DNA of 63,884 nt from a virus (taxonomy: Duplodnaviria; Caudoviricetes): positions 1 to 63,884 of the IMG/VR virus record IMGVR_UViG_3300027734_000065; one strand, written 5' to 3'. The translations under genes were made by a program, and so were the position numbers. Positions within the stretch are counted from its first letter, which is position 1, and each line of letters begins with the position of its first letter. Under the pieces are notes generated by a model. That model made no database searches. It was not told the origin of the DNA and saw nothing but the letters and a program-made list of their open reading frames with translations. This document shows, in pieces, positions 20,963 through 63,884 of this stretch.

Positions 20963-23900
20963 ATGGCAGTTAACATCCAACTGGTTGATGGTCGTGTCAT
21001 TCAATTTCCTGATGGCACAGACCCAAAGGTAATTGAGGAAACTGCACGAAAAGCTACCCAAAACCCGTTGTTTGGGGTTTCAACCCAGGAACTCAAAGAA
21101 GCCCCAAGCGCCCCATCCAAACTCAAGGATGTGGGCATTGCCGCCCTGACGGGCTTGGCAGGTGGCGCACAGTCCCTGACTGACTTATTCGGCGCAGGGA
21201 ACATTGCATCCAGGGGCCTGTCCAGCGTTCAGCAATCAGCGCAGGAAGGTCTATCAGAGGCCCGTAAGGCAGAGATTGCCAGGGACGAAGAACTGAAGAA
21301 ACGTGCCGAAGGTAGCTTCCTGGACGAGGCTGGTGCTGGCTTTCGCTCCTTTGCCAACGCCCCATTGCAGGAGGGCATCCAAGCCCTCTTCTCCTCCGCT
21401 CCAATCATTGCCGCAGGCGCTTTGACAGGTGGTGCTGGCGCTGTCCCATTGACTGCGGCCCGTGCAGGTCTTGCCGCCCGTGCGGCACAGGCTGGACGAG
21501 TCGCTACAAGCGGCACAGGGGTTGGTGCGGCCATGGGCCTGGGTGGTCAGAAGGGTCAGGACTACGAGACGGTCAAACGGGAACTGATGAACCGTGGCAT
21601 GCCAGAACCCGAAGCAGAGGCCAAGGCCCAAGAGGCGGCGGCTTACAGTCTTCAGAACCTACCCCGTCAAGCTGTTGCCGCTGGTGCTGGTGCATTAGAA
21701 GGCCGCTACGGTGTTGAAGGTGCGCTGTCCAACTTTATGAAACAACGAGCAGCCACTGCTGCTGCCGGTAAAGCGTTTACACCAGAGCTACCCCCAGGCT
21801 ACGGCAAGGCCGCAGTCTCATCAATATTTGGCGAGGTAATCCCCGAAGGCATCCAGGCCGCTACAGGGCAAGTGGGCACTAACATCGCATTGACGCAAGC
21901 AGGCATACCAACTGATGCTCTTCAAGGTGTGACCAGTGCAGTGGCCCATGATGCCGCAGTTGCCGCTTTGCTTGGCACGGCAGTGACCCCGTTTCAGAAG
22001 GCCAACATGGTTCGGGAGTTCAACCAAACGATGGTCGAAAGACAGCAGAAAGCGTTTGAGGAAGAGGCCAAGAGGCGGGAAGAGTTTGAGCGCAAGAGGC
22101 AGGAAGAAATTGCCAAGACCCGCCAGGAGTTGGGCATACAAGAAAAGCCGCCATTGCTTCTGGAATCAGACCTGTATAAGGATGAAAAGACAGGGGAACT
22201 CAAGTCCAAAACCAAACTGGATGTTGCACCTCCCGTCACCGATCCATTGATTAACCCATTGGGTAACCTGACCAAGGATGAACTTGGTCAAGCTGTTGGT
22301 GTGTCTGATGTTTACAAGTTTGTAGACAATTACCGCCGAAAAAATAATTTACCCAAGCTTGAAACCTATTCCATTGAAGACCTGAAAGATGCCCAGCCAG
22401 GACTGGCAGAGGTTGGGGAGAAGGGTTCGCTTGAGTCAATCCTGACGTTTAAAACAGGGTACGAAGCCAACACACCAATAGCTGCCGAAAATGTTTTAAA
22501 CACGGCTTTGCAGAAGAATGTTGAAACGGGAACCAAAGGGTGGAATGACTTCTTGGCCCGGACAACAGGCAACAACTCCCTAGACACCATGTCTGGCCCT
22601 GAGTTGCTTGCAGTCTCACAGGCTTTAAACAGATTGCCAGACCCGAAGCCAGAATCTGCGCCCATTATTCTGCCCGAAGGCACTAACGCCAAGCTGTTTA
22701 AACAGAGCCAATACGACCAAGCAATCAGCGCAGTTGATACTGCCTTGTCCGGTCAGGGTCTGTCCTTGACCCCTGGGCCAATGACTGAACAGGCCACGCT
22801 GGACGTAATCAAGCAGGCAACTGGCCTGACCTTGGACAAGCATGCCAAAGCCATTCTGGACACCGCAGTCAAGCAAGGTGACTTTGATCTGGAGATGACC
22901 CCGAAGTACGAGGTCACTGACCCAGCCACTGGTGTCAGGGTTGGTGACTTGTACGAAACCCGCACGGAAGCGCAGGCCGCTGCCAAGCCCAAAGGTTTAA
23001 ACGTCAACGAGATAACGGAGAGCGCAGTCGTTGCGCCCAAGACCGCCACCACCCTGCCTGATGAGTTTGACATCCAAGAAGGCGAGTTCAAGGCTGGCGA
23101 AGCACCCGAAAGCTTTGACATCATGGCCGGGAATACGGTTCTTGCCAATACAGCGTCTTACGAAGATGCCGCAGGAAGAATTGAAGGCTTTACCAAAATA
23201 AGACAGCGGATGGCTGACCAAGCGTTAGCCAAGGTTACAAAACTGCAAGAAGAAATTGCCAACAGTCAGAGTGACCTTGAACAAATGGAAGCCAAGGGTC
23301 AGGCAAACACCCAAGAGTACATCAATGCCCGTGGCGCTCATGCAAAACTGCTTAAAGAGCAGGAAGTCAAAACAAACGAAGCATTTGACGAGGCAGATAA
23401 ATATAACCCGGAGACAAATCCGATCTCCATCAAGCCCCGCAAGTTAGCTCCTGTTCGCCGCAGGGGCCTAACGGTGCTTCAGAAGGGCATCCCTTCTGCT
23501 ACCTTCCCCACCCGGACAGCCGCAGAAGAGCACATCATCGCCAACATGTCTGATCAGCAACTCAAGAAGCTGACCAAGACTAAAGGCCGCAGAACATTGG
23601 CAAAACGGGCATTGGCCGAGTTGCAGGCCCGTGAGGACAAGAAGGCCGGGGTCACCAAAGGCTTTGCGGTCAAACGTTCTGAGATTGAAGCGGAGCCAGA
23701 GGTTTCCCAGGAGGTCAAAGACAAGATTGCCGAACTGGAGAAGTTTTTGCTCCCAGCCCTGCGTAAGCTGGGTTTAAACGATGTTGCCCTGAAGATTGAG
23801 CAATCCATCGCAGGCGGTAGGGCAGGAGGCTCCTACTACGAGAGCCTAATTAAGATTGCCATGGACGAGGAGAATCCTCTGTTGACCATGCGCCATGAGG

Positions 23901-26900
23901 CGTTGCATGCCCTGAAGGCTCTGGGATTCTTCACACCCCAGCAATGGGCCACCCTTGAGCGTAAGGCCCGGACAGAATGGGTGAACAAGTATCTGCGTCA
24001 GCGTAACGTGAATGGAGGGCCAATCCAGCCCAATGAGAATTCCCGCTACTATGCCTACGAGTTGATGAACATCATTGAGCCAACTGTGTTCAATGAGCAG
24101 AACCCTGACCAGCCCCAGAGAACGGTCATGTCCCAAGCGGACTTCATGGACTTGATCATTGAGGAAGCAATTGCTGATGCGTTTGCCGACTTCACTGTAA
24201 ACAAACCCCCACCTGGGATGATCGCTGCGCTGATGCAGCGTTTAAACAAGTTCTTTGAAGCTCTGCGTAATGCCATGGCTGGCGCTGGGTTCCAGACAGT
24301 GGATGACATCTTTGGCAAAGTTGAGGCCGGTGAGTTGAAGGCCCTGGGTCAAGGCCCCGCTGGAGCCAAAACAAAACTTTCGGTGACTGCCGAAAAGGTT
24401 GAAGAAGTTGACCCCAAAAATGTTGGCAATATTGTCACCAATAGCGCATACAAAGATGCCGGTATTAATGTACTAGGCTCCCAGATTGAAAAAACTTCAA
24501 AGCCACTGGAAGTTGATGATGTTGGCAAATTGTTTGACGATGCGTATATGGCAGAGTTTGGCAAAGCTGGCGATTGGCGCAACCCCGTTGATTTTAAACG
24601 TGCTGTAGTGCAGGCTGTAGATGAGCTTAAAGTCCAAATGCAGCAGGCAAAATCTGGTCTAGATTGGTATGACGAGGATGTTGCTGAAGCGTTTAAACTT
24701 ACCCAGCGTTACATACCAAGTTTAAAAAATCCTGAAAAGCGTGCTTTGTTTTCGGTTATTGCAGGGATCATGTCCCCCAGCACTAACGCAAGAGACAACT
24801 GGGTAATTGCCGCCCAAGCCTATCAGCACTATGAAAAAACAGGAACTTTGCCTGGAACCAATCCTGCAACAGGTGGGCTTTGGATGGGTGGCCTGGAATC
24901 GGCCAACAAGAAAAAACAATTGGACATGCTTAACGCAATGCTTCAACCAAAATCAAAGGGTGGCTTGGGTGAGAAGGGCGCTGTTGAATGGTTGCAGGGC
25001 GTGCATACAGTTGCAGAAATAACAAGTTTTCGCTCTAAATACGGCGGCATGGGCAAGTCTAGTACTGGTGGCAAAGCAACAGATATTCTGCCCGGCTTTA
25101 CAGCCTTTGGCCCAAAAGTTGGGCCATTCGTTATGAACATAAATGGTATACACGAAGTAACTGTTGATGTGTGGATGACACGCACCTTCAATAGATATTT
25201 TGGACAAATGATGGGGCCTGATGGTAAGATGGTTCGTGCCCCAACAGAACCACAACGTGTTGCAATTAAAAACCTCGCAGTTTTAGCAGCACAGCAACTT
25301 GGTATTAAGCCTTACCAAGTGCAGTCAATGCTTTGGTTCATGGAGCAGCAAATATTTAACAAGCTTGGAACAGGAGCGAAAAGCTATGGGTTCAGTGACG
25401 GGGCAACCAAGTTCAGCGAAACGCAGGGAGGAGTTGGAGTATCAAAAGTGCCTCCTGCAAACATCGGCGCTAATGCGACTGCGAACAAACCAACCAGAAA
25501 GCAAGCTGTCGGATCTGGCGTTCAAGCGGGTAAACTATCAGTTAGATCAACTGGACAAGAAGTAACAGATGAAAACATACGATCTGCAAAACCTGCCATT
25601 CGACCCGGCGATCAAGGCGGGAGAAGAGTCACGGAAGATCAATCAGGACGAGGAAACCGAGGAGGACGGGATTCGGGCCGAGGCACTACGCCGCTTGCAG
25701 GTGCGCCAACTGTCCAAGGGGCGACAGGGCCAGACCCAGAAATAGTTAGTGTTGCCGAAGCATATGCGGCAAAAAACAACATCCCATATTCACCGCAGGA
25801 ATCCTACGTTGAAGTAGATGAAGATCGTGCAAGGCGGCTGGCACAGGCATATGAAGACATGCCCCATGCGCCAAAAGATCCCGCTGTACAAGCGGCGTAT
25901 AAAGATTTGGCTGAACAAACCAGGGCGCAATATGATGCGCTTATAGATGCTGGATACAAGTTCACATTCTTTGATAGCGAAACAGACCCCTATGATGGCA
26001 ACCCATGGAACGCTATGCGTGATCTGCGTCAGAACAAGCAGATGGCCGTGTATGGAACCTATGACGGCTTTGGCACAGAAGGTCTTACAGACACCGCTGT
26101 TGAAGACAACCCCATGCTTGAAGACACCGGGTTGCGTTGGGAAGACCAAAACGGTGTTGATCAAATCGTTACCGCCAATGATCTTTTCCGGGCCGTGCAT
26201 GATGCATTTGGTCATGGCTTAGAGGGCGCTGGCTTCCGTGCCAGGGGCGAGGAGAACGCATGGCAAGCCCACGCCAGATTGTTTACTGGCCCAGCACTCG
26301 CCGCCATTACATCTGAAACCCGAGGCCAAAATAGCTGGTTGAACTACGGGCCGTATGCAGAGAAAAACCAGAACGCCAAAGTGCAAGACACGGTTTTTGC
26401 AGAACAAAAAACTGGCTTGATGCCCGATTGGACTTGGACAGAAGGGTTGCCCAAGTTGAGCGTAAGAGGTAAACAGGGGGTAGTCCTGGGCACTTTACAA
26501 CCTGGGGCGGCAAGCTTCAAAGGCGCTCACTACGGGAATGCCAAGGTAGACACCCTCAACGGGGACAAGTACGGCACAGGCATACGGGGCGCAGAACGCC
26601 GCCGTTTAGACGAAACCGGGGATGATCGCATTCGCCGCCGTGTGTATTTCTACGTTGCCAAGGAAGACGGAACAATGCCCACGCCAGAAGCTGGTCTGGG
26701 CCAATACGTTTACACGCAGCAGTTTGACAACATCCTGCCCCCAGGCGCAGAGATGAGTAAGCTGTACAGCCAAGCCAATGCAAACTCCAACCAGTTTGAA
26801 TCGGCAGTGGTTGATGCTGGCTACGATGGATATGCCATTCCAAACATGGGCATGATGGTTGTTCTGAACCACAACGCACCTGTCGAATACCGGGGAACCC

Positions 26901-29900
26901 GTGTTGAAATGGCAGAGCGGGGCGAGAAGTTAAGCATCCGTCCCCCGCCTTTGGTTGGTCGGATAGCCCCTAACACACCAGAATTTAAACGCTTCTTTGA
27001 TGGCAGCAAGGCCATCAACGATGACGGCTCACCAAGACTGATGTTTCACGGGACAGTGGAAACGCCGGGCGAAGAGGGTAATTTATTTAGCGCCTTCAAC
27101 CTGTCAGATGATGGAAAACTTGGCTCTGGCGTTTACACAACCTCTGTGCCGGTCTACGCAGAAACATTTGGGTTCTCACAGCCTGCGCTGATGCCCCTGT
27201 ATTTGTCGGCCAAGAACCCCTACTACATCGAACTGGGAGACTTCCCAACCCGGATGAAGGGGGATAACCTTGCCCTGACGGACGATGCCTTCAATGCCCT
27301 GGAAACGCAGATGAAAGAGGCCGCTACCAAGCTGTCAGGTAAACGCCTGATGGACTTGGAAGGCGGTCAAGTAAGGAAGATGTTTGAGAAGGCTGGCTAT
27401 GATTCCATCATTGCCAGGGACAGCTACGGCAACATCATCGAAGCCCTTGCGTTTAAACCTGAACAGGTTAAGTCAGCCACCGGCAATGTGGGAACCTACG
27501 ACCCCACCAACCCTGACATTCGTCTGAGCGTCCGCAACATCATCGGTGACCAGAAGGTCATTGATGCTTATCTGTCCAAGACTACGGCACGGGAAGAGAA
27601 GGGCCATGCGGCCCGTATGCTGGATGCCATCACCCCGCCCACATATACATCTCTGCGCCAGATGTTCCTGAATCAGTACGATTCACTGGCCCGGTTGGAT
27701 AACCGCTATGCCAAGGCCAAGGGCATCGTGCGTTTGATGGCCGACTCCAGTGCAGAGGCGGCGGCGTTGATGTCCGACATGGCCGCTGGTGTTGCCGCAC
27801 GGGTCATCGGAATGGGCGGTAGCCCAGGTGGTGCTCCCGTGTATCGCAACGGCGCTACCTACATCGACAACAAGAATGGCACGATCAAAGGCCCAGCAGA
27901 AATCTTTGCTCCCCTTGCAAAGCGTAACGACCCTGAGATCTACCAAGCCTACCAATACTGGGCCGGTGTTCAACGTGGGTCACGCTACATGCAGAACCCC
28001 AATGGAACCTACGAGGAAAAGCTATTCAACGACCCAAAAGACATTGCCTACGCAAACCACCTCCTGACAAAGTTTCCTGAGTTTAAACAGGTGCAGGCCG
28101 ATTGGAACCTCTACAACGATGGGCTTGTGGACTACATGGTCAGCACAGGTGTTATTTCCAAAGAGGGTGGCGAAAAGTTTAAAAAGTATGGGGACTACAT
28201 CCCCTTCTACCGCCAGCTTGAGGGCGAAGAAACCATTGGCCCGAAGGTGTTCCAGAACATCTCTGGGGTCAAGCCTCCCAAGAAGGCAAAGGGTAGCGAG
28301 GCTCCATTGGCTGACTTCCTGGAGACAGTTGTAAGGAACACGCAAGCCGCCATTCAGGCGGGGATGAAGAATGCCGCCGCTATCCGCACTATGGATATGT
28401 TGCTTGACCCACAGATTGATCAGGCCACAAAGATCAACAAGCCTCAAGGCATCAACACCGTCTCCCTTTTGCGGGGCGGCAAGATTGAGCATTACCATGT
28501 AAACGACCCGCTGCTGGTGGACAGCCTGAAGAGTTTAAACCTCGCCAAGCTCCCAGGTTTGGGATTCCTGTCAGGCCCCGCCAATCTTCTGCGTACTCTG
28601 GTAACCAAAGACCCAGGGTTCATGCTTGTCAACTTGATGCGTGACTCCATGTCTGCATGGGTGACCAGCGGTCAGGACTTCAAGCCCGGCATTGACACCA
28701 TTCGTTACTTTGGCAAAGCACTGGCCGGGAACTCACCAGAGGTTGAGGCCATCCTAAACTTTGGCATGGGTGGATATGATTTTTCCAAGAATGTGGAAAA
28801 GAGTGGCCGGGACTTGGCCGCAACCCTGAAGAAGAAAACCCAGGGCAAGCGCACGTTTGGTCAGAAAGTCCTCAATGTAGCCCCATCCTTGTGGGAAGCC
28901 TTGGAAAAAGGCACAACCGCATCGGACATGGCAACCAGAGCGGCCATCTACAAGAGCGTGATGAAGGAAACGGGCAACGAGACTGAGGCCCTGATGCGTG
29001 CCCTTGAGGTGATGAACTTCAACCGCAGAGGAAACTCAGTTGTGGTGCGTATAGCCACAGCCGCCATTCCCTTCTTCAACGCCCGTATGCAGGGCCTGGA
29101 TGTGCTGTACCGTGCAGGTATACGCCCGTACAAGAGACAGCTTGTAAACCTAGCCTCAGATGTTTTGAAACTGGGCTTGGAAAAGCAGGAAACTACAGAC
29201 TACGAGAAGCAGATTGCCAAGACATTTGCCATCCGTGGTCTAGCCATGATGGCCGTGTCATCTCTGTACTGGGCCATGACCCATGACGATGATGAGTACC
29301 TTACCCAGGAGCAAGAACTCAAGGACAACAACTTCCTGTTGCCCAGCCTTGGTTTAAGGCTCCCAATCCCGTTTGAGGTGGGTGTGATGTTTAAAGTCAT
29401 CCCAGAGCGGTTGTTGGAACTCAGCTTTGGCAAAGACACGGGCAAGGACTTCAGCGAGGCAATGGTTCGCAACATCAAGAGCAGTCTGTTCATGGACTTG
29501 ATGCCACAGACGATCAAGCCCATCTACGAGGTCACCACCAACTACAACTTCTACACCCGCCGTCCCATCGTGGGGCAGGGCGCAGAAGGCATGGCCGCTG
29601 AATATGAAGTGGGGCCGGGTACGTCCTCCTTTGCAGAGGGCCTTGGCAAGACGTTGGGGTATTCACCTCTCAAGCTTGACCACCTGATTAAAGCCTACAC
29701 CGGAACTATTGGCACATATGGGGTTTTTCTCATTGATAGCGTTATCGATGCAAACAGTAATGTGCCAAAAGCTTCACTGCGGTTTGAGCAATTGCCGTTC
29801 TTCAGGCGCTTTACCCTTGATAAGGATGCCCGTGGGAAACAGACGGCCTACTACGACCTGAAGAACTCAGTGGATGAGGTTGTCCGCACCGTCAATCACC

Positions 29901-30151
29901 TGGAGAAGGCCGGGAACTACGAGGAGATGGGCGAGTACATGCAGGACAACATGCGAATCCTTGCGGCCAAGGACTACATCTCTGCGATTGACAAGGAGAT
30001 GAAGTCATTCCAGGAGATGGGCAACATGATCCGCAGTAGCAAGATGAGCGGGGACGAGAAGCGGGATGCCCTGCTGGCCGTCACCCAGGCCCGGAACAAG
30101 CTAACCGGGAACATTCAGGAAATCAAGAAGATGATAGCTTCAGGTGATTGA
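20963..30151 (+). CDS. Large polyvalent protein (3062 aa): HExxH metallopeptidase, four enzyme-like cassettes (including ART-like), C-terminal LPD38-like domain
   Basis: MRHEALHAL; GPKVGPF...VTVDVWM; FRAVHDAFGH; MFHGT...GVYTT...GYDSII...QVKSATGN.G; LPIPFEVG..FK.IPER. Confidence 0.8.
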   Translation: MAVNIQLVDGRVIQFPDGTDPKVIEETARKATQNPLFGVSTQELKEAPSAPSKLKDVGIAALTGLAGGAQSLTDLFGAGNIASRGLSSVQQSAQEGLSEARKAEIARDEELKKRAEGSFLDEAGAGFRSFANAPLQEGIQALFSSAPIIAAGALTGGAGAVPLTAARAGLAARAAQAGRVATSGTGVGAAMGLGGQKGQDYETVKRELMNRGMPEPEAEAKAQEAAAYSLQNLPRQAVAAGAGALEGRYGVEGALSNFMKQRAATAAAGKAFTPELPPGYGKAAVSSIFGEVIPEGIQAATGQVGTNIALTQAGIPTDALQGVTSAVAHDAAVAALLGTAVTPFQKANMVREFNQTMVERQQKAFEEEAKRREEFERKRQEEIAKTRQELGIQEKPPLLLESDLYKDEKTGELKSKTKLDVAPPVTDPLINPLGNLTKDELGQAVGVSDVYKFVDNYRRKNNLPKLETYSIEDLKDAQPGLAEVGEKGSLESILTFKTGYEANTPIAAENVLNTALQKNVETGTKGWNDFLARTTGNNSLDTMSGPELLAVSQALNRLPDPKPESAPIILPEGTNAKLFKQSQYDQAISAVDTALSGQGLSLTPGPMTEQATLDVIKQATGLTLDKHAKAILDTAVKQGDFDLEMTPKYEVTDPATGVRVGDLYETRTEAQAAAKPKGLNVNEITESAVVAPKTATTLPDEFDIQEGEFKAGEAPESFDIMAGNTVLANTASYEDAAGRIEGFTKIRQRMADQALAKVTKLQEEIANSQSDLEQMEAKGQANTQEYINARGAHAKLLKEQEVKTNEAFDEADKYNPETNPISIKPRKLAPVRRRGLTVLQKGIPSATFPTRTAAEEHIIANMSDQQLKKLTKTKGRRTLAKRALAELQAREDKKAGVTKGFAVKRSEIEAEPEVSQEVKDKIAELEKFLLPALRKLGLNDVALKIEQSIAGGRAGGSYYESLIKIAMDEENPLLTMRHEALHALKALGFFTPQQWATLERKARTEWVNKYLRQRNVNGGPIQPNENSRYYAYELMNIIEPTVFNEQNPDQPQRTVMSQADFMDLIIEEAIADAFADFTVNKPPPGMIAALMQRLNKFFEALRNAMAGAGFQTVDDIFGKVEAGELKALGQGPAGAKTKLSVTAEKVEEVDPKNVGNIVTNSAYKDAGINVLGSQIEKTSKPLEVDDVGKLFDDAYMAEFGKAGDWRNPVDFKRAVVQAVDELKVQMQQAKSGLDWYDEDVAEAFKLTQRYIPSLKNPEKRALFSVIAGIMSPSTNARDNWVIAAQAYQHYEKTGTLPGTNPATGGLWMGGLESANKKKQLDMLNAMLQPKSKGGLGEKGAVEWLQGVHTVAEITSFRSKYGGMGKSSTGGKATDILPGFTAFGPKVGPFVMNINGIHEVTVDVWMTRTFNRYFGQMMGPDGKMVRAPTEPQRVAIKNLAVLAAQQLGIKPYQVQSMLWFMEQQIFNKLGTGAKSYGFSDGATKFSETQGGVGVSKVPPANIGANATANKPTRKQAVGSGVQAGKLSVRSTGQEVTDENIRSAKPAIRPGDQGGRRVTEDQSGRGNRGGRDSGRGTTPLAGAPTVQGATGPDPEIVSVAEAYAAKNNIPYSPQESYVEVDEDRARRLAQAYEDMPHAPKDPAVQAAYKDLAEQTRAQYDALIDAGYKFTFFDSETDPYDGNPWNAMRDLRQNKQMAVYGTYDGFGTEGLTDTAVEDNPMLEDTGLRWEDQNGVDQIVTANDLFRAVHDAFGHGLEGAGFRARGEENAWQAHARLFTGPALAAITSETRGQNSWLNYGPYAEKNQNAKVQDTVFAEQKTGLMPDWTWTEGLPKLSVRGKQGVVLGTLQPGAASFKGAHYGNAKVDTLNGDKYGTGIRGAERRRLDETGDDRIRRRVYFYVAKEDGTMPTPEAGLGQYVYTQQFDNILPPGAEMSKLYSQANANSNQFESAVVDAGYDGYAIPNMGMMVVLNHNAPVEYRGTRVEMAERGEKLSIRPPPLVGRIAPNTPEFKRFFDGSKAINDDGSPRLMFHGTVETPGEEGNLFSAFNLSDDGKLGSGVYTTSVPVYAETFGFSQPALMPLYLSAKNPYYIELGDFPTRMKGDNLALTDDAFNALETQMKEAATKLSGKRLMDLEGGQVRKMFEKAGYDSIIARDSYGNIIEALAFKPEQVKSATGNVGTYDPTNPDIRLSVRNIIGDQKVIDAYLSKTTAREEKGHAARMLDAITPPTYTSLRQMFLNQYDSLARLDNRYAKAKGIVRLMADSSAEAAALMSDMAAGVAARVIGMGGSPGGAPVYRNGATYIDNKNGTIKGPAEIFAPLAKRNDPEIYQAYQYWAGVQRGSRYMQNPNGTYEEKLFNDPKDIAYANHLLTKFPEFKQVQADWNLYNDGLVDYMVSTGVISKEGGEKFKKYGDYIPFYRQLEGEETIGPKVFQNISGVKPPKKAKGSEAPLADFLETVVRNTQAAIQAGMKNAAAIRTMDMLLDPQIDQATKINKPQGINTVSLLRGGKIEHYHVNDPLLVDSLKSLNLAKLPGLGFLSGPANLLRTLVTKDPGFMLVNLMRDSMSAWVTSGQDFKPGIDTIRYFGKALAGNSPEVEAILNFGMGGYDFSKNVEKSGRDLAATLKKKTQGKRTFGQKVLNVAPSLWEALEKGTTASDMATRAAIYKSVMKETGNETEALMRALEVMNFNRRGNSVVVRIATAAIPFFNARMQGLDVLYRAGIRPYKRQLVNLASDVLKLGLEKQETTDYEKQIAKTFAIRGLAMMAVSSLYWAMTHDDDEYLTQEQELKDNNFLLPSLGLRLPIPFEVGVMFKVIPERLLELSFGKDTGKDFSEAMVRNIKSSLFMDLMPQTIKPIYEVTTNYNFYTRRPIVGQGAEGMAAEYEVGPGTSSFAEGLGKTLGYSPLKLDHLIKAYTGTIGTYGVFLIDSVIDANSNVPKASLRFEQLPFFRRFTLDKDARGKQTAYYDLKNSVDEVVRTVNHLEKAGNYEEMGEYMQDNMRILAAKDYISAIDKEMKSFQEMGNMIRSSKMSGDEKRDALLAVTQARNKLTGNIQEIKKMIASGD

Positions 30152-30419
30152 ACTCAAATAACCACCCAATTGTTTTTCGGTGAGCTTCATCCCAGGCGTT
30201 TAAACGCATCTCCTTGGACATCGACTTGCCCTGGTCAATTTCCATGTGGCAGTGGTAGCAGAGCGCCGCAATGCGGTAATCATGGGCCTTCAGCCCCCTG
30301 CCCTTGCCGTCCCGTAGCTGATTGGAGTGAGCGGCCACTATCGTGCCGTTCTTGACTCCGCATAGCTGACAGGGCGACTCCCGGACGATCTCAAGGAGTT
30401 TTTGGTTACGGTACATCAT
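30123..30419 (-). CDS. Zn-binding HNH-like nuclease (DUF1364/DUF968-like)
   Basis: PCQLCG...AAHSN...GKGRGLKAHD...LCYHCH. Confidence 0.7.
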   Translation of the reverse strand: MMYRNQKLLEIVRESPCQLCGVKNGTIVAAHSNQLRDGKGRGLKAHDYRIAALCYHCHMEIDQGKSMSKEMRLNAWDEAHRKTIGWLFEFNHLKLSSS

Positions 30420-43939: not shown

Positions 43940-45604
43940 TTATGCGGCTAATTTGATCTGACTGAATGCAACCTCACCCAACTTGGATACGTCATCGATG
44001 CATACCGACTGAGGGTAGGTATCGGATATGTCCACGCCGATCCCCACGCCTACCGTGGTCAGACCCAGGTGCTGACCCGACTTCACTTGGAGGGCGGTAG
44101 AGTAGGCCCCGCCCCCATCTGTGATCACAAAGCAAACCTTGCGTGCCTCACTACGGGCCAACAGCAACTCATGGGCGTAGCGCACGGCAAAATAGTCATT
44201 CGTTGAACCGCCACACTTCACGCCTTTGATCTCGCCCAGGGCCTTCTTCACGGGCATGGCCCAGGGCTTGAGGACGCTGGTATCGTTGGCAAAGGTCAGC
44301 ACGCAAGTGGCAACCCCGGCGGCATTGAGGGACTCCAGCAAAGCGGCCAGGGTCTTCACGGCGGGACGAATGCGATTGCCGCCACTCACTTCTTCCATTG
44401 ACCCTGATACGTCCAGCACGATCACAACAGCAGAGTCGATCCCCTCCACTTCCAGTCTGCGTTTAAACAGGCGGTCATTACCACGGGCCATCGATGGCAG
44501 GGCACGCACGTTCAAGGCCCCGGTCTTGCGCCCAGGTTGGAATTCTTCCATGCCGGACTTGTCGAATAATCTTTTGAGGTCATAGCGCATCTTGGCAGGT
44601 ACAATCACCTGTATGTCGTGGCATGGAACACCAACGTGCATGCCGGGACGGCCAAGCTTTGCGGCCTTGTCATACGTCCCGCAACCCGTTGCACCTTCCG
44701 GGATCCCTGCCTCTGGCTCAGTCTCCACGGCCTTGACCATCTCGCCCTTATGCGTGACGGGGGAGAACGCCTCTTTGGGGGCCTCTGGGGCCGCCTTGGG
44801 GGTAGGTGTACCCTGACCCTTGCCGCCCTCTTTTGAGGGGCCTTCCTGGCCTTCACCGCCGTCACCTTGGCCCTCACCGTCTGCGCCCTGGCCCTCGCTA
44901 TCTTCACCTTGGCCTTGACCTTCACCGCCGTCACCTTCACCTTGGGGAGGTTGCTTTGGGGGTTGTTGTGGGGGTTGCTTTGGCAGGGCCTTCAGTTGAT
45001 CGAACACCCACTCTGCGATTTCCATTGTGTCCCGTGTCCCAGGCAAGCCGGGGCGGCATGCGCCCATGCGGCTCACGGCCTCAACAAAAATAGAGTGCAG
45101 GGGGAGGGGCACTGGTATCGTTTGCTTTGCGTGGGGGCGGCACATAACGGCCAAGATAAAGGGGTACTGAGCGGGGTTTGACCAATCTTCAACCTGGGCC
45201 ATGGCCTCCGCAACGAACCCGTCAATCAGGCGGGAAAGTAATTGCGAACAATTGCCCGTCATGTTTAAACGAATGCACTCCGATTCGATGCGGCCATCTT
45301 CAATGCCGTTGTGCAGGGCCATGACGTACTGACGGGCGTGACGGGTTGTCACCACGTTGAAGTCGGTGAAGGCACGGTGTAAGAGTTCATGCAAGACCTT
45401 GCCACAATACCGCTCAAACACCGCCACACTGATGATTGCGTCATCAGCAACAATGGACAGTTCCATGCGCCCGTATGCGTCAATGGATGCGGTGCTGATT
45501 TGCGTCCAGCGCACGGTGACGCTTGGCAACCCCAGGGCGGCGCAGACCTTGTGGGTAAAGGTTTCAATGCCCCGCATGAATTCATAACCTCTCATTGTTT
45601 TCAT
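43940..45604 (-). CDS. CobT-like vWA domain protein with N-terminal HExxH domain
   Basis: VLHELLH...NGIEDGRIE; Gly/Glu/Gln linker; MIDAS DVSGSM...T...ITDG. Confidence 0.85.
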   Translation of the reverse strand: MKTMRGYEFMRGIETFTHKVCAALGLPSVTVRWTQISTASIDAYGRMELSIVADDAIISVAVFERYCGKVLHELLHRAFTDFNVVTTRHARQYVMALHNGIEDGRIESECIRLNMTGNCSQLLSRLIDGFVAEAMAQVEDWSNPAQYPFILAVMCRPHAKQTIPVPLPLHSIFVEAVSRMGACRPGLPGTRDTMEIAEWVFDQLKALPKQPPQQPPKQPPQGEGDGGEGQGQGEDSEGQGADGEGQGDGGEGQEGPSKEGGKGQGTPTPKAAPEAPKEAFSPVTHKGEMVKAVETEPEAGIPEGATGCGTYDKAAKLGRPGMHVGVPCHDIQVIVPAKMRYDLKRLFDKSGMEEFQPGRKTGALNVRALPSMARGNDRLFKRRLEVEGIDSAVVIVLDVSGSMEEVSGGNRIRPAVKTLAALLESLNAAGVATCVLTFANDTSVLKPWAMPVKKALGEIKGVKCGGSTNDYFAVRYAHELLLARSEARKVCFVITDGGGAYSTALQVKSGQHLGLTTVGVGIGVDISDTYPQSVCIDDVSKLGEVAFSQIKLAA

Positions 45605-45664: not shown

Positions 45665-47077
45665 TTACATGTTGTTGAAAATAAATGTCTCATCAATGTA
45701 GGACAAGCGGATGGCCTCCAGGGCATGGGCCGACTCACCGGGTTGACGGGCGGCAATTGATTGTGCCCACGCCTCGCTGGGACTGAGGTACTTCAATGCC
45801 CGGATGTAAGCAACCACTGACCTGATGCTTGGTGCGTCCACAATGTCGGCTGTTTCAACCTTGGCACGGGCGGCATGTATGGCCTTCAATACATGCTCTG
45901 CCAAGTCGGCGGTGCAACCCGTATGGTTGACCACTGCTTGCACCTCTTGCGCCATGGGCAAATAGTCGAATCGAATGATCAGGCTGAACCGATCCAGCAG
46001 GGCAGAATTCATGGGGCGTGTCCCCGCATAGCGGCCACTATCATCCCCATTGCCCAATGTGTTATCGGCCACAAAGGCCAAGACCCCAGGGGCACGGCGG
46101 TGCGTTATTCCCCCATACGACACGGCGCTCTTGCTCTCCAGTAGACCGTTCAAGACCGCCAAAACCCCTGGATCTGCATTCGTTACCTCATCCAAAAGTA
46201 TTACATTTGCAGGGGAGGTGAAAGCTTGCAGAAAATCCCCGTACTTGAAAACGGTTGCCCCGTTCTCCAGGCCAACGGCCCCAATGAAATCCTCGCACGT
46301 TGAGAATTTATTGAAGTTGATGCGTTTAAATGCCCGTCCCGTCCGGGCGCAGAATTCCTGGGCGGTCATTGATTTGCCCGTGCCCCGATCCCCTGCGAAC
46401 CAAGCATTGCTGGAGGTATCTTGGCAAAATGCCAGGGCCTTAATGATGGACTCAGTCCAAATGAACATGGGATCGATGGCCGGGGCATCGGGGTGCGTGT
46501 AAACATCGAACATCAGGGGGTTGCCCTTTGTGTCGTTCACTTCAATGCCAAAAACACTCAGCGCAGATTGTCGGACGCTGGTCAACGGGGCGAGAGCGGC
46601 CACAATGGACTCAGCACCAGCACCCCGCACCGCCGCCTCGAACGGGGCGAATGCGTCAGCGATCAAGCGGCCAACCTGGGCATGCACCGCCTGGGGGTCA
46701 ACCCCCTGCACCTTCTCGCCCAATGCGTTGGCAACCTTGCGGAGTGCCGCCACTTCATTGAACAAAATCGCAGATGCATTGGTTGAATGCTTGGCCTCAC
46801 TGATGGCCTTGTCGGCACGGGCGAGGGCATCAAGGGCAGACTGTTCAGCACGGGACGCAACCGCTTGGACGGCATCATTGATCTGGGCAGGTGCGGCGGC
46901 TTTAGCCCCGGCGGCCTCCATGTCGGTGCGGGTGAAGGCGTGGGCATCCAGCCCACTCAGCAACCACTGGAAAATGTCGTTTGCGTTTGCGCCGACAACG
47001 GGTTTGTTGTTCAGTGCGTTGTAAGCCCGGATGCGGGTTGACAGGGGCAGGGACTGAATGAATTGTGCGTTTGTCAT
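45665..47077 (-). CDS. MoxR/CobS/CbbQ-like AAA+ ATPase
   Basis: Walker A GDRGTGKS, Walker B ILLDEV, NTLGNGD..GRYAGT..MN.ALLDRF; probable ATG at 47077. Confidence 0.88.
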   Translation of the reverse strand: MTNAQFIQSLPLSTRIRAYNALNNKPVVGANANDIFQWLLSGLDAHAFTRTDMEAAGAKAAAPAQINDAVQAVASRAEQSALDALARADKAISEAKHSTNASAILFNEVAALRKVANALGEKVQGVDPQAVHAQVGRLIADAFAPFEAAVRGAGAESIVAALAPLTSVRQSALSVFGIEVNDTKGNPLMFDVYTHPDAPAIDPMFIWTESIIKALAFCQDTSSNAWFAGDRGTGKSMTAQEFCARTGRAFKRINFNKFSTCEDFIGAVGLENGATVFKYGDFLQAFTSPANVILLDEVTNADPGVLAVLNGLLESKSAVSYGGITHRRAPGVLAFVADNTLGNGDDSGRYAGTRPMNSALLDRFSLIIRFDYLPMAQEVQAVVNHTGCTADLAEHVLKAIHAARAKVETADIVDAPSIRSVVAYIRALKYLSPSEAWAQSIAARQPGESAHALEAIRLSYIDETFIFNNM

Positions 47078-47087
47078 GGTGGTCACC

Positions 47088-47675
47088 TTATGCAAATTGA
47101 AACAGAGAACGATCATTGGGGCAGATGGGCAGGTTTGTAGAACCGTCAGCGGCATACGCCCATTTGTTGGTCAGGCGCACGGCATAGTTGCATTTGGGGC
47201 ATTTCGCCAAAATCATGCGGGTGCTTTGCTTGGCTTTGAGGTAGGGGTTGACCTTGGCATGCGGGTACAGGCCCAACTCAGCCAACAGGTCATTGGGGCG
47301 AAAGCTTGGCCCCGCCACGGTTCTAGTCCAAGGGTTGGCGGTCTTGCCGTCTGCGATCAAGCCAAGGTCAGATGCGATCCGAACGAATGCGGGGCCATGC
47401 TTGGATGCCCCGGCGGTTGCGGCGCAAAGGCCATGGATCAGTCGGGCGAGAACAACAGCGGGGTCATCCAGTGTCCATGAAACAGTGATTTCAACCGCCC
47501 GGTCAGATGACTGACTGTCACTGAGCGTGACCACTTCCAGGCCATGGCGGCTGAAGTTGGGGGTCTCAGCACAGGCGACACGGATGGACGCAGGGACGGG
47601 CGCACCCGCCGCCACAAAATGGGGCCGTAGCAGGTCAATCGCCTGGGTCAGCCACTCTTCACGGGTTTGAAACAT
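47088..47675 (-). CDS. SprT-like protein with degenerate zinc site and C-terminal zinc ribbon
   Basis: TREEWL; LIHGLCAA...HGPAF; CPKC.Y..R...PICP; AGGAG RBS. Confidence 0.6.
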   Translation of the reverse strand: MFQTREEWLTQAIDLLRPHFVAAGAPVPASIRVACAETPNFSRHGLEVVTLSDSQSSDRAVEITVSWTLDDPAVVLARLIHGLCAATAGASKHGPAFVRIASDLGLIADGKTANPWTRTVAGPSFRPNDLLAELGLYPHAKVNPYLKAKQSTRMILAKCPKCNYAVRLTNKWAYAADGSTNLPICPNDRSLFQFA

Positions 47676-62188: not shown

Positions 62189-63117
62189 CAACCACAGGGA
62201 CATCAATATTTGACATGGACTTCACGGAGATAGCCGAGGAGTCGTGGGAGCGTGCGGGTCGGGAAATGAGGTCTGGTTATGACCTCAGAACGGCACGCCG
62301 CTCCATGAATTTGATGACCATCGAATGGCAGAACCGTGGTTTAAACATGTGGACGATTGAGCAAGGCTCCTTCGAGCTTACTGCCGGTTTAAACACATAC
62401 CCTCTACCGGACGATACGATTGATCTTCTGGAACACGTTATCCGGACGGGACAGAACTCAACGACCAATCAAGCAGACCTGACAATCACCCGTATAAGTG
62501 TTAGTACCTATGCCACGATCCCCAATAAGCTGACTCAGGCCAGACCCATTCAGGTTCTAATTCAGCGCAATTCAGGTCAAACTGGGGCAACTGCACTGAC
62601 CTTGGACGGCTCAATTACCAGCACAGCCACCACCATAACCCTAGACTCTGTCGTGGGCTTGGCGGCGGCAGGGTACATCAAGCTGGAAAATGAAATAATT
62701 TATTACAACTACATCGATGGAAATGTTCTAAGTAACTGTTTCCGGGCGCAAGCCAACACCGTTGCGGCTTCGCATGCTGACAATGTTTCAGTCTTTGTCC
62801 CTCAGTTACCTGCCGTGACTGTCTGGCCTACCCCCGATAACACGACTACCTACACATTTGTGTACTGGCGCATGCGTAGGGTGCAGGATGCCGGGGCCGG
62901 TGTAGAGACTGCTGACATGAATTTCCGCTTCCTACCATGTGTGGTGGCGGGGCTGGCCTACTACATCGCCATGAAAGTCCCTGAGTTGCAGGGACGGATG
63001 GACATGCTGAAGGCAACCTACGATGAGCAATTCAATCTGGCGGCTGGGGAAGACCATGAAAAGGCCGCTTTGCGGCTGGTTCCCCGTCAGTCATTCATTG
63101 GATCTGGTGGCACATAA
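62185..63117 (+). CDS. Putative head-tail adaptor protein
   Basis: GYDLRTARRSMNL...WQNRGLN.W; VWPTPD; RFLPC..AGLAYY. Confidence 0.7.
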   Translation: MTTTGTSIFDMDFTEIAEESWERAGREMRSGYDLRTARRSMNLMTIEWQNRGLNMWTIEQGSFELTAGLNTYPLPDDTIDLLEHVIRTGQNSTTNQADLTITRISVSTYATIPNKLTQARPIQVLIQRNSGQTGATALTLDGSITSTATTITLDSVVGLAAAGYIKLENEIIYYNYIDGNVLSNCFRAQANTVAASHADNVSVFVPQLPAVTVWPTPDNTTTYTFVYWRMRRVQDAGAGVETADMNFRFLPCVVAGLAYYIAMKVPELQGRMDMLKATYDEQFNLAAGEDHEKAALRLVPRQSFIGSGGT

Positions 63118-63506
63118 TGGGCAACAGGTTTGCGTCAGGTAAATACTCAATTGCCGAGTGTGACCGGTGTGGTCAGCGGTACAAGCTGAAACAGCTTAAA
63201 TTTGAGGTTGTCAAGACCAAGCTGTATCAACTGAAGGTTTGTGATGAATGCTGGGATCCGGATCAGCCGCAGCTTCAACTGGGTATGTATCCGGTGGATG
63301 ACCCGCAGGCTGTAATGCAGCCCCGCCCGGACACAACGTATGTAACATCAGGTGTAAACGTGGGTGGGTATCCATCTGGTGGTTCCCGAGACATTCAGTG
63401 GGGCTGGAGGCCTGTAGGTGGCTCCAGCTTCTTTGACGTAGAACTCACGCCAAATTACTTGGTGGCAACGACAAGTGTTGGTACAGTATCAATCAGCGCA
63501 ACTTAG
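63117..63506 (+). CDS. Second allele of the 413-802 zinc-motif protein
   Basis: Differs from the first copy by 4 amino-acid substitutions. Confidence 0.85.
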   Translation: MGNRFASGKYSIAECDRCGQRYKLKQLKFEVVKTKLYQLKVCDECWDPDQPQLQLGMYPVDDPQAVMQPRPDTTYVTSGVNVGGYPSGGSRDIQWGWRPVGGSSFFDVELTPNYLVATTSVGTVSISAT

Positions 63507-63514
63507 GAGCAGAT

Positions 63515-63691
63515 ATGGACAAGAAACAAGTCAAGGCAATTGCCGACACCGAAGCCAAGAAAATGGTCAAAGGCCATGAATCCCGCATGCATGCCAAAGG
63601 TATGAAGGCCGGTGGCCCCACCAGTTTGGATCGTAAGAAATACGGAAAGAACCTTTCCCGTGCAATGAACCAGAAATCTGGGAGCAAATAA
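63515..63691 (+). CDS. Second allele of the 811-987 small basic protein
   Basis: Identical protein sequence. Confidence 0.8.
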   Translation: MDKKQVKAIADTEAKKMVKGHESRMHAKGMKAGGPTSLDRKKYGKNLSRAMNQKSGSK

Positions 63692-63884
63692 TGGGCAAAT
63701 ACAGCATGAAGAAAATGGGCAAAGAGGTTGGCGATGCCAGCGTCTATGCCGAACCCCACACCATGGATGGGAAGAAGGCCAGCATTTCCAGCAACCCCGG
63801 TAAAGGGCCAAACGGGAGCGAGGCCGTGAATGTAAACATGTCGGTTGGTAACATCAACCGCAGTGGATATTCTGAACCCAAGAC

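Follow-up and report, generated by a model that had tools for sequence, protein, structure and literature searches.

A recurrent pentapeptide at the module joints of a giant phage polyvalent protein, a candidate processing site downstream of an HExxH domain

Phage-type polyvalent proteins are giant multidomain virion proteins in which ADP-ribosyltransferase (ART)-PolyVal, LPD38 and HExxH domains occur. In the main-text passages that describe them, LPD38 is listed as phage-type only, and metallopeptidase (MPTase) domains are proposed to process polyvalent proteins into functional units, with no processing site being named (Iyer et al., 2017; PMC5512222). There the term cleavage site appears in the reference list alone, and linker, interdomain and boundar are absent (PMC5512222). 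The protein considered here is the 3062-amino acid (aa) product of an open reading frame (ORF) in a virus of the Caudoviricetes, IMG/VR virus record IMGVR_UViG_3300027734_000065, and the whole of this record, 63,884 bases with a 100% complete rating, is the stretch of DNA analysed (the window). This protein has the same kinds of domain as the described proteins and differs from them in that a pentapeptide, [KR]LS[VI][RT], marks its joints. The pentapeptide may be a processing site of the HExxH domain encoded in cis, releasing cassettes from an ejected polyprotein; judged from sequence, this possibility is favoured, although it stays slightly short of an even chance.

Three other kinds of system invite comparison. 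Multifunctional autoprocessing repeats-in-toxin (MARTX)-type toxins are giant delivered proteins with a swappable effector array and a built-in protease which is thought or known to cut the linkers, the effectors being released in the target cell. In MARTX the protease is of the cysteine type and is switched on by a eukaryotic cofactor; a bacterium secretes the toxin. The window protein would resemble such toxins as a giant delivered protein with a swappable effector array and one built-in protease (a candidate), whereas the candidate is an HExxH domain, the protein belongs to a phage virion, the target is bacterial and the cleavage is a prediction. Prohead proteases of T4-like and phiKZ-like/SPN3US-like phages reportedly cut internal and ejection proteins at short motifs. 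Those systems are said to share with the window protein a short consensus site that recurs in packaged proteins and large precursors that yield several products; in contrast, their sites are said to be common to capsid or scaffold proteins and to be cut by a separate head protease, whereas the present site occurs in a single protein of the phage, and the head-module ORFs include no recognised protease. Podophage ejection proteins, such as T7 gp14-16 and those of the cyanophage A4 pre-ejectosome, are likewise encoded at the end of the structural block, but are smaller and, in the text covered, are not described as cassette arrays (PMC12002296). Within that text the terms ADP-ribosyl, polyvalent and peptidase do not appear, and cleav appears in one reference title only (PMC12002296).

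The window carries terminase, portal, capsid, adaptor and tail genes of a phage and a block of replication/recombination genes, and the giant gene sits 3' of the tail, virion and internal-protein genes. Pfam searches of the 3062-aa protein recovered LPD38 at aa 2776-2946 (94.2 bits vs 27), ART-PolyVal at aa 2019-2178 (56.8 bits vs a cut-off of 31.2) and DUF7178 at aa 1343-1460. Because of these three families, the protein, as judged from its domain content, is a phage-type polyvalent protein in the sense outlined for this class in the available passages (Iyer et al., 2017; PMC5512222): it is very large and unites a number of unrelated domains, some of them from families that were defined on polyvalent proteins. 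It probably travels into the host with the DNA as an ejection-type, internal virion protein, given the place of its gene and the match of its ART model to a pre-ejectosome chain (see below). The parts which the argument needs first are as follows.

20963..30151, plus strand: giant ORF, 3062 aa, from the ORF list and its translation, with Pfam LPD38, ART-PolyVal and DUF7178; final gene of the structural block.
23708..24328, plus strand: folded core of the HExxH domain, aa 916-1122, with HEALH at nucleotides (nt) 23894-23908 (MRHEALHAL) and EEAIAD at nt 24161-24178.
24374..24388, plus strand: motif 1, KLSVT, aa 1138, a copy of weak consensus about 15 aa past the end of the HExxH domain.
25532..25546, plus strand: motif 2, KLSVR, aa 1524, in a 45-aa context with 84% small or polar residues.
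26453..26467, plus strand: motif 3, KLSVR, aa 1831, in a 45-aa context with 69% small or polar residues.
26927..26941, plus strand: motif 4, KLSIR, aa 1989.
27521..27535, plus strand: motif 5, RLSVR, aa 2187, at the border to the conserved C-terminal module.

The 3062-aa product contains [KR]LS[VI][RT] five times and no more, compared with 0.016 matches expected from its composition. Among 5000 shuffled sequences, 4903 had no match, 97 had one and none had at least two. A preliminary description of the window had reported the same five pentapeptides, and each is exact in residues and position. Its layout of the protein also agrees with the positions found: HEALH (aa 978-982) and EEAIAD (aa 1067-1072) come before the motifs and LPD38 after them, with ART-PolyVal between motifs 4 and 5. 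The serine codons of motifs 1 to 5 are TCG, TCA, AGC, AGC and AGC, and a repeat search of the window found no DNA repeat family joining the five sites. As both serine codon families are used and no DNA repeat is present, the motif is conserved at the protein level, as had been proposed. A widened form of the motif has no copy in the 77 other ORFs of the window (about 16,500 aa).

The motif recurs across a large protein family with the consensus [KR]-[YFL]-S-[LVI]-[RK]. A search with the HExxH region recovered 525 giant relatives, of which the 120 listed form the analysed set; the form [KR][LYFMIV]S[VIL][RK] occurs in these 120 homologues 314 times, compared with 16 expected, and 109 of them carry at least one copy. 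When 1.84 billion cluster representatives were searched with a profile of the HExxH domain, 2699 proteins were found at E<=1e-3 and 256 at E<=1e-30, and in 135 further listed, independent 50%-cluster representatives the motif was observed 201 times vs 16.8 expected. Megablast of the gene against a phage collection gave zero matches.

Freeing one position at a time in 247 giant proteins longer than 1500 aa revealed which residues are preferred at each place. Position 1 is K or R; position 2 is enriched in Y (45-fold), F (27-fold), L (24-fold) and K (8-fold); position 3 in S (29-fold), with no enrichment of T (8/686); position 4 in L (60-fold), I (9-fold) and V (6-fold); and position 5 in R (55-fold) and K (12-fold). 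This profile looks like a sharp, subsite-like specificity. Among 283 unique copies, position 2 is Y or F in 47% and L in 51%. Position 4 is V or I in all five window copies vs 76 of 505 family-wide, which points to a shared constraint within the lineage. The five motif residues persist while their flanks diverge fully.

The distribution of the motif is strictly polar with respect to the HExxH domain. No copy lies upstream of HExxH and 284 lie downstream in 102 homologues, and the 135 further representatives have one upstream and 193 downstream, against a background in which 30% of residues (97,313/320,548) lie upstream. Straight after the HExxH domain, most of the homologues printed carry a degenerate [KR]xS[LV]x, such as KTKLSVT, EKKSVRE, ERLSVKE and KQLSLGA. 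At the other end of the array, 73 of the 120 homologues have their last strict copy 825-899 aa before the C-terminus, where the conserved C-terminal module begins. Proteins that have no ART keep the motif at this border too. When ART tails were gathered by a motif-free anchor, 65 of 118 unique tails had a strict motif and 38 a near variant (RKSLR, RYNLR, RYSLS, RFSLP and others).

The flavour of the motif changes with the type of HExxH domain. Eighteen family proteins (e.g., P0060, P0065 and P0173) have HExxHG instead of HExxHA, with HExxH intact in 18/18, and carry RKSL[RS] at 15 of 19 ART tails; this would fit a motif whose flavour shifted across the lineage along with a variant of the putative peptidase. 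Four distant giant proteins with other HExxH types or none, those of the cultured or named phages ctQRb9, Octadecabacter BD1, Pag-Yong1 and PTXU04, do not have the motif. ctQRb9 and Octadecabacter BD1 have cassettes 1, 2 and ART in common with the window protein, in a different order, and their ART tails read NILNQS or NLLAQR where the motif family has R[YL]S[LV]R. A reduced-alphabet 5-mer search for another recurrent junction motif in these four proteins found none above shuffles, with a weak method that scores the window motif at 4 vs a null maximum of 6. Both the absence of the motif from proteins with other HExxH types or none and the pairing of RKSLR with HExxHG fit a recogniser that evolved with the phage lineage.

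Structure prediction places the modelled copies outside folded modules. The AlphaFold2 (AF2) model of the HExxH domain (aa 893-1162; 71 sequences; predicted template modelling score 0.69) has a confident, mostly helical core at residues 24-230 and a tail with a predicted local distance difference test (pLDDT) value below 50 which holds motif 1 (model residues 246-250); the low-confidence tail lies in no groove of the single-chain model. In the ART model (aa 1974-2216; 26 sequences), residues 24-201 fold as an ART, and motif 4 (residues 16-20) and motif 5 (residues 214-218) lie in the segments 1-23 and 202-243, both with pLDDT below 50. Three of the five window copies, motifs 1, 4 and 5, are thus predicted to lie outside the confident cores, and the question whether the motifs are buried in folded domains, on which the preliminary description had made its idea depend, is answered in the negative for these three. 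Within the ART alignment, the distance from motif to domain on the upstream side varies through a 17-aa insert, and the flanks beyond the motifs are unaligned. A complex prediction for the HExxH domain (residues 20-236) with a 38-aa joint peptide (residues 195-232) gave a score of 0.02, which speaks neither for nor against recognition. Taken over the family, a short site recurs at module joints in accessible linkers, with the exceptions weighed below.

The modules that the motif separates, with the two terminal ones, are the following.

20963..23707, plus strand: N-terminal module, aa 1-915, with a Gly/Ala-rich hydrophobic stretch in the translation and zero motif copies.
24389..25531, plus strand: cassette 1, aa 1143-1523, with Pfam DUF7178 (aa 1343-1460, E 1.3e-7), in a cluster of 7 motif-bounded segments.
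25547..26452, plus strand: cassette 2, aa 1529-1830, phrog_3170, with a conserved HDAFGHG stretch and no named family.
26468..26926, plus strand: cassette 3, aa 1836-1988, in a cluster of 11 motif-bounded segments of 158-168 aa.
26942..27520, plus strand: cassette 4, ART-PolyVal ADP-ribosyltransferase, aa 1994-2186, Pfam PF18760.
27536..30148, plus strand: conserved C-terminal module, aa 2192-3062, with Pfam LPD38 at nt 29288-29800 (E 1.4e-26).

Segments bounded by the motif are domain-sized (median 208 aa). The 211 internal segments group into 32 families, with lengths that vary rather little within a family; the ART cassette makes up the largest (99 members). Across 89 proteins these families are combined into 57 different internal architectures. 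Upstream of the ART cassette 17 kinds of neighbouring cassette occur, and downstream of it 8; cassette content between conserved motifs therefore varies among homologues, as the preliminary description had proposed to check. Homology breaks at the motif itself: the sequence NIIGDQKVID... follows ...NPDI-RLSVR of the ART cassette in the window and an unrelated cassette ending in ...ESASDE-KLSVR in the relative L008. The idea that the motif is a junction for cassette swapping is compatible with these data. Swapping through DNA homology is excluded, because no DNA repeat is present and the codons differ.

Only part of the earlier picture of four enzyme-like domains stands: ART alone belongs to a recognised enzyme family; cassette 1 is assigned to DUF7178 and cassettes 2 and 3 to no family. 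Homologues of cassette 1 occupy other positions in the giant proteins of the phages ctQRb9 and Octadecabacter BD1. Cassette 2 is 56% identical to its counterpart in ctQRb9, in an alignment that stops at TWTEG just before motif 3, and its relatives in mycobacteriophages are parts of free-standing genes; it has no match in the PDB, and its closest clusters in the Atlas consist of viral proteins without a name, 267-320 aa long. Cassette 3 likewise has no match in the PDB. The idea that cassette 3 is a divergent ART was rejected (hhalign probability of 1% against the ART alignment); an Atlas hint (0.90) serves as a lead only. Cassette 4 combines a Pfam score above the gathering cut-off with an ART fold. 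Its model has as best PDB match in Foldseek the cyanophage A4 pre-ejectosome chain 9k3a_B (1071 aa; E 3.3e-4, TMq 0.30), and also matches an anti-CRISPR protein and the ART domains of PARP/tankyrase proteins (E 6.5e-4 to about 0.06, with low TM-scores of 0.23-0.32). Free-standing ART proteins of 133-426 aa, which were sought for retention of the motif, gave no match at E<=1e-5.

The N-terminal module reaches 79-92% in alignment with L003, L005 and L008, from aa 33 on, and the C-terminal module is 87-90% identical in L003, L004, L005 and L008, 51-55% in L006, L007, L009 and L010, and about 23-28% in cultured-phage giants such as those of PTXU04 and Pag-Yong1. Natural gene splits at a joint were not found among the 15 loci within which the giant ORF ends: 15/15 run through to a C-terminus, 13 of them ending in an LPD38-type tail and L060 and L061 differently. 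Two short proteins, P0134 (744 aa, on a 10.5-kb contig) and P0151 (644 aa, on a 21.8-kb contig), stop a few residues past the conserved GELK with which the HExxH domain closes; either a frameshift or a natural split of the gene at the first joint may account for them. Other observations concern the array itself. In L005 (aa 1570-1860) and L003 (aa 1657-1950), an extra cassette follows a KYSLR site and contains a ...GKSG[FI]ALKGDDIVSVFSG... stretch, and L010 (aa 1903) and L006 (aa 409) have a second, different HExxH cassette (GHEGRHRARAL) within the array.

The favoured explanation is that the protein is an internal, ejected polyprotein made of the N-terminal module, the HExxH domain, a variable effector array (DUF7178, two cassettes and ART) and the conserved LPD38 module, in which the pentapeptide would act as a short linear site for recognition, placed at the flexible joints between the cassettes. 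The putative HExxH metallopeptidase would cut the array at the pentapeptide, giving separate cassettes and a freed C-terminal module; this would more probably follow ejection than take place in the assembled capsid. Zincins generally prefer a hydrophobic P1' residue. This preference and the exclusion of Thr at the small position lead to the guess that the scissile bond would be Ser-[LVI]. We infer that the HExxH domain is an active peptidase and that it recognises the pentapeptide, and the bond and the time of cutting are to be read in the same conditional sense. The HExxH domain has invariant residues of catalytic type: in 71 sequences, which are 38-93% identical to the window copy, H978, E979, H982, E1067, E1068 and D1072 (H86, E87, H90, E175, E176 and D180 in domain numbering) are invariant. 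This is a zincin-type pattern of HExxH with a downstream acidic residue conserved in the family, in which the choice of the third ligand is conjectural. Two other roles for the serine were considered. Self-cleavage by N-O acyl shift was set aside in view of the placement of the copies in low-confidence linkers, which would lie between unrelated folds, and a Ser/Thr-kinase site was rejected, as Thr is not enriched.

Several results weigh against the favoured explanation. The HExxH domain is without detectable relation to known peptidases: in Pfam searches the window protein matched no peptidase family at E<=1, and only three of the 71 members matched Peptidase_M13, weakly (best E 0.082); phmmer and profile searches of the domain against PDB chains had no match; Foldseek with the AF2 model found nothing in the PDB at E<=1e-3; and VIA-align wide reached a best Z of 4.9, to unrelated helical proteins. 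Matches of the model in BFVD are pieces of other large phage proteins only. The term zincin-like of the preliminary description holds for the invariant HExxH, EE and D residues, whereas no peptidase family or fold was recovered; the zincin-like metallopeptidase hub of the polyvalent proteins described earlier differs in this respect from the present domain, which matches no Pfam peptidase model (Iyer et al., 2017; PMC5512222). According to the same passages, N4 virion RNA polymerase has an MPTase and is nevertheless packaged unprocessed (Iyer et al., 2017; PMC5512222), and therefore an MPTase does not imply processing. Among the 40 phage-database matches listed, beyond which lie 184 further records, none spans the HExxH part and no cultured member was found.

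The motif itself has exceptions that count on the same side. No strict copy was found in 45 of the 135 diverse representatives, and 15 of the 118 unique ART tails have no motif-like sequence. In the close relatives L003 and L005 the motif is absent between cassettes 2 and 3, where the joint equivalent to motif 3 reads EPASVVTGKG, and between the inserted cassette and cassette 2. P0157 (4460 aa) has three HExxHA sites, four stretches that match the HExxH profile and zero motifs. The motif is conserved and lies at module edges, as had been claimed, while the stronger statement that each domain is bounded by it fails across the family. Flanks that are not homologous in the alignments may be responsible for part of the low pLDDT at the joints. 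The association of the motif with the HExxH type, like that of RKSLR with HExxHG, may in each case equally well stem from a single ancestral event and not from co-evolution.

Other explanations of the motif give part of the evidence a different meaning. The lack of any link between the HExxH domain and a peptidase family would suit cutting by another protease, either a phage head-maturation protease or a host protease after ejection. The features of the motif suit any site-specific protease, and the processing of ejection proteins that is reported for T4-like and phiKZ-like phages offers a precedent. This is nonetheless improbable. Searches of the head-module ORFs with PHROGs and Pfam recognised no prohead protease (an unrecognised one is possible), and the 303-aa capsid protein has a size which suggests that it has no removable N-terminal domain. 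With 0/77 other ORFs carrying the motif, a protease of this kind would have no further substrate in the phage, and the same site is missing from the other head proteins that a prohead protease would be expected to cut. The strict polarity downstream of HExxH would be left without an explanation, and motif flavours that differ from one phage lineage to another are not easily reconciled with a host protease. Carriage without any recognition function, in which the motif is a linker remnant moved with the cassettes and marking tolerated in-frame recombination, would account for the joints that have no motif and for the cassettes apparently imported in close relatives, which bring KYSLR or RYSLR into proteins whose own sites read KLSVR, KLSIR or RLSVR. 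This explanation is very unlikely: a remnant would hardly be expected to show a 12- to 20-fold enrichment with near-invariant Ser and Leu next to a domain that is only 38-50% identical, to use both serine codon families with no DNA repeat, to keep five residues between fully diverged flanks, or to hold V or I at position 4 in every window copy, with the lineage constraint that this indicates.

Binding without cutting is a further possibility, rather unlikely as it stands. Here the motif would be a linear binding motif in flexible linkers for multivalent docking to a capsid packaging or core partner, to DNA, or to a host hub such as the beta sliding clamp. Five conserved residues in low-confidence linkers are typical of linear motifs. 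The AlkB homologue 2 PCNA-interacting motif (APIM) has the pattern [KR]-[FYW]-x-[LIVA]-[KR], and the clamp-binding consensus is QL[SD]LF. The variants RFSLK, RFSLR, RYSLR, KYSLR and KFSLK match the former, and the L-S-L core resembles the latter. Exact RFSLK has 16 copies in the 120 listed homologues. This natural variant of the junction motif is also the peptide which, in synthetic or overexpressed form, bound the E. coli beta-clamp (dissociation constant below 50 uM by microscale thermophoresis) and blocked growth, according to the passages available (PMC7261172). On the other side, APIM needs an aromatic residue at position 2, where roughly half of the natural copies have L and the whole HExxHG subclade has K. 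Replacement of the aromatic residue (RALVK) weakened clamp binding in the same passages (PMC7261172). A binding motif would have no need to stand at each module edge, to signal where the C-terminal module begins in 73 of 120 proteins, or to avoid the N-terminal third entirely. The exclusion of Thr and the strong preference for Leu look like subsite specificity, though they are compatible with binding. A more particular idea, in which the motif is a multivalent host-targeting tag and not solely a cut site, with aromatic variants (RFSLK, RYSLR and KYSLR) that mimic APIM or clamp peptides and tether the ejected array, or each released cassette with the tag at its end, to the host sliding clamp, is a long shot; if true, ADP-ribosyltransferases and other effectors would be brought to the replisome, or host replication would be blocked in the first minutes of infection.

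Several features of the window stand apart from this protein family. Positions 1-1180 and 62705-63884 form a direct repeat at the record ends (1180 bases, 96% identity, 46 mismatches, 0 gaps), which has the look of a terminal repeat, or else of a circularly permuted genome whose assembly drew on a mixed population; the IMG/VR class is linear. An ORF at 1258-2103 on the plus strand matches the Pfam SU10 adaptor protein family (E 7.1e-19), suggesting a podophage-type portal-tail connection. On the minus strand, a 98-aa ORF at 30123-30419 (HNH endonuclease, phrog_131, E 1.7e-23) overlaps the final 29 bases of the giant gene. Neighbouring minus-strand ORFs at 43940-45604 and 45665-47155 match PHROGs for a cobalamin/cobaltochelatase CobT-like protein and a porphyrin-biosynthesis ATPase, and look like an auxiliary-gene pair.

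Polyvalent proteins and the idea of their processing by a peptidase are already known, the latter, in the passages cited, with no defined site (Iyer et al., 2017; PMC5512222). The additions made here are a defined junction motif, its polarity with respect to HExxH and its role as the seam of a cassette system, none of which turned up in the literature searched: a search for the pentapeptide variants found no phage paper, and searches on the processing of polyvalent proteins brought up no experimental mapping. Phages and conjugative elements commonly carry polyvalent proteins, and a sharp five-residue motif makes the processing idea of 2017 concretely testable. If the motif binds a partner, it would point to a host hub targeted by phages of the motif family. 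If it is a processing site, it would serve as a parser for setting the limits of uncharacterised anti-host effector domains throughout a large metagenomic family of giant proteins (2699 cluster representatives at E<=1e-3), and the system would be a bacteriophage counterpart of the strategy of polyproteins and multi-effector toxins.

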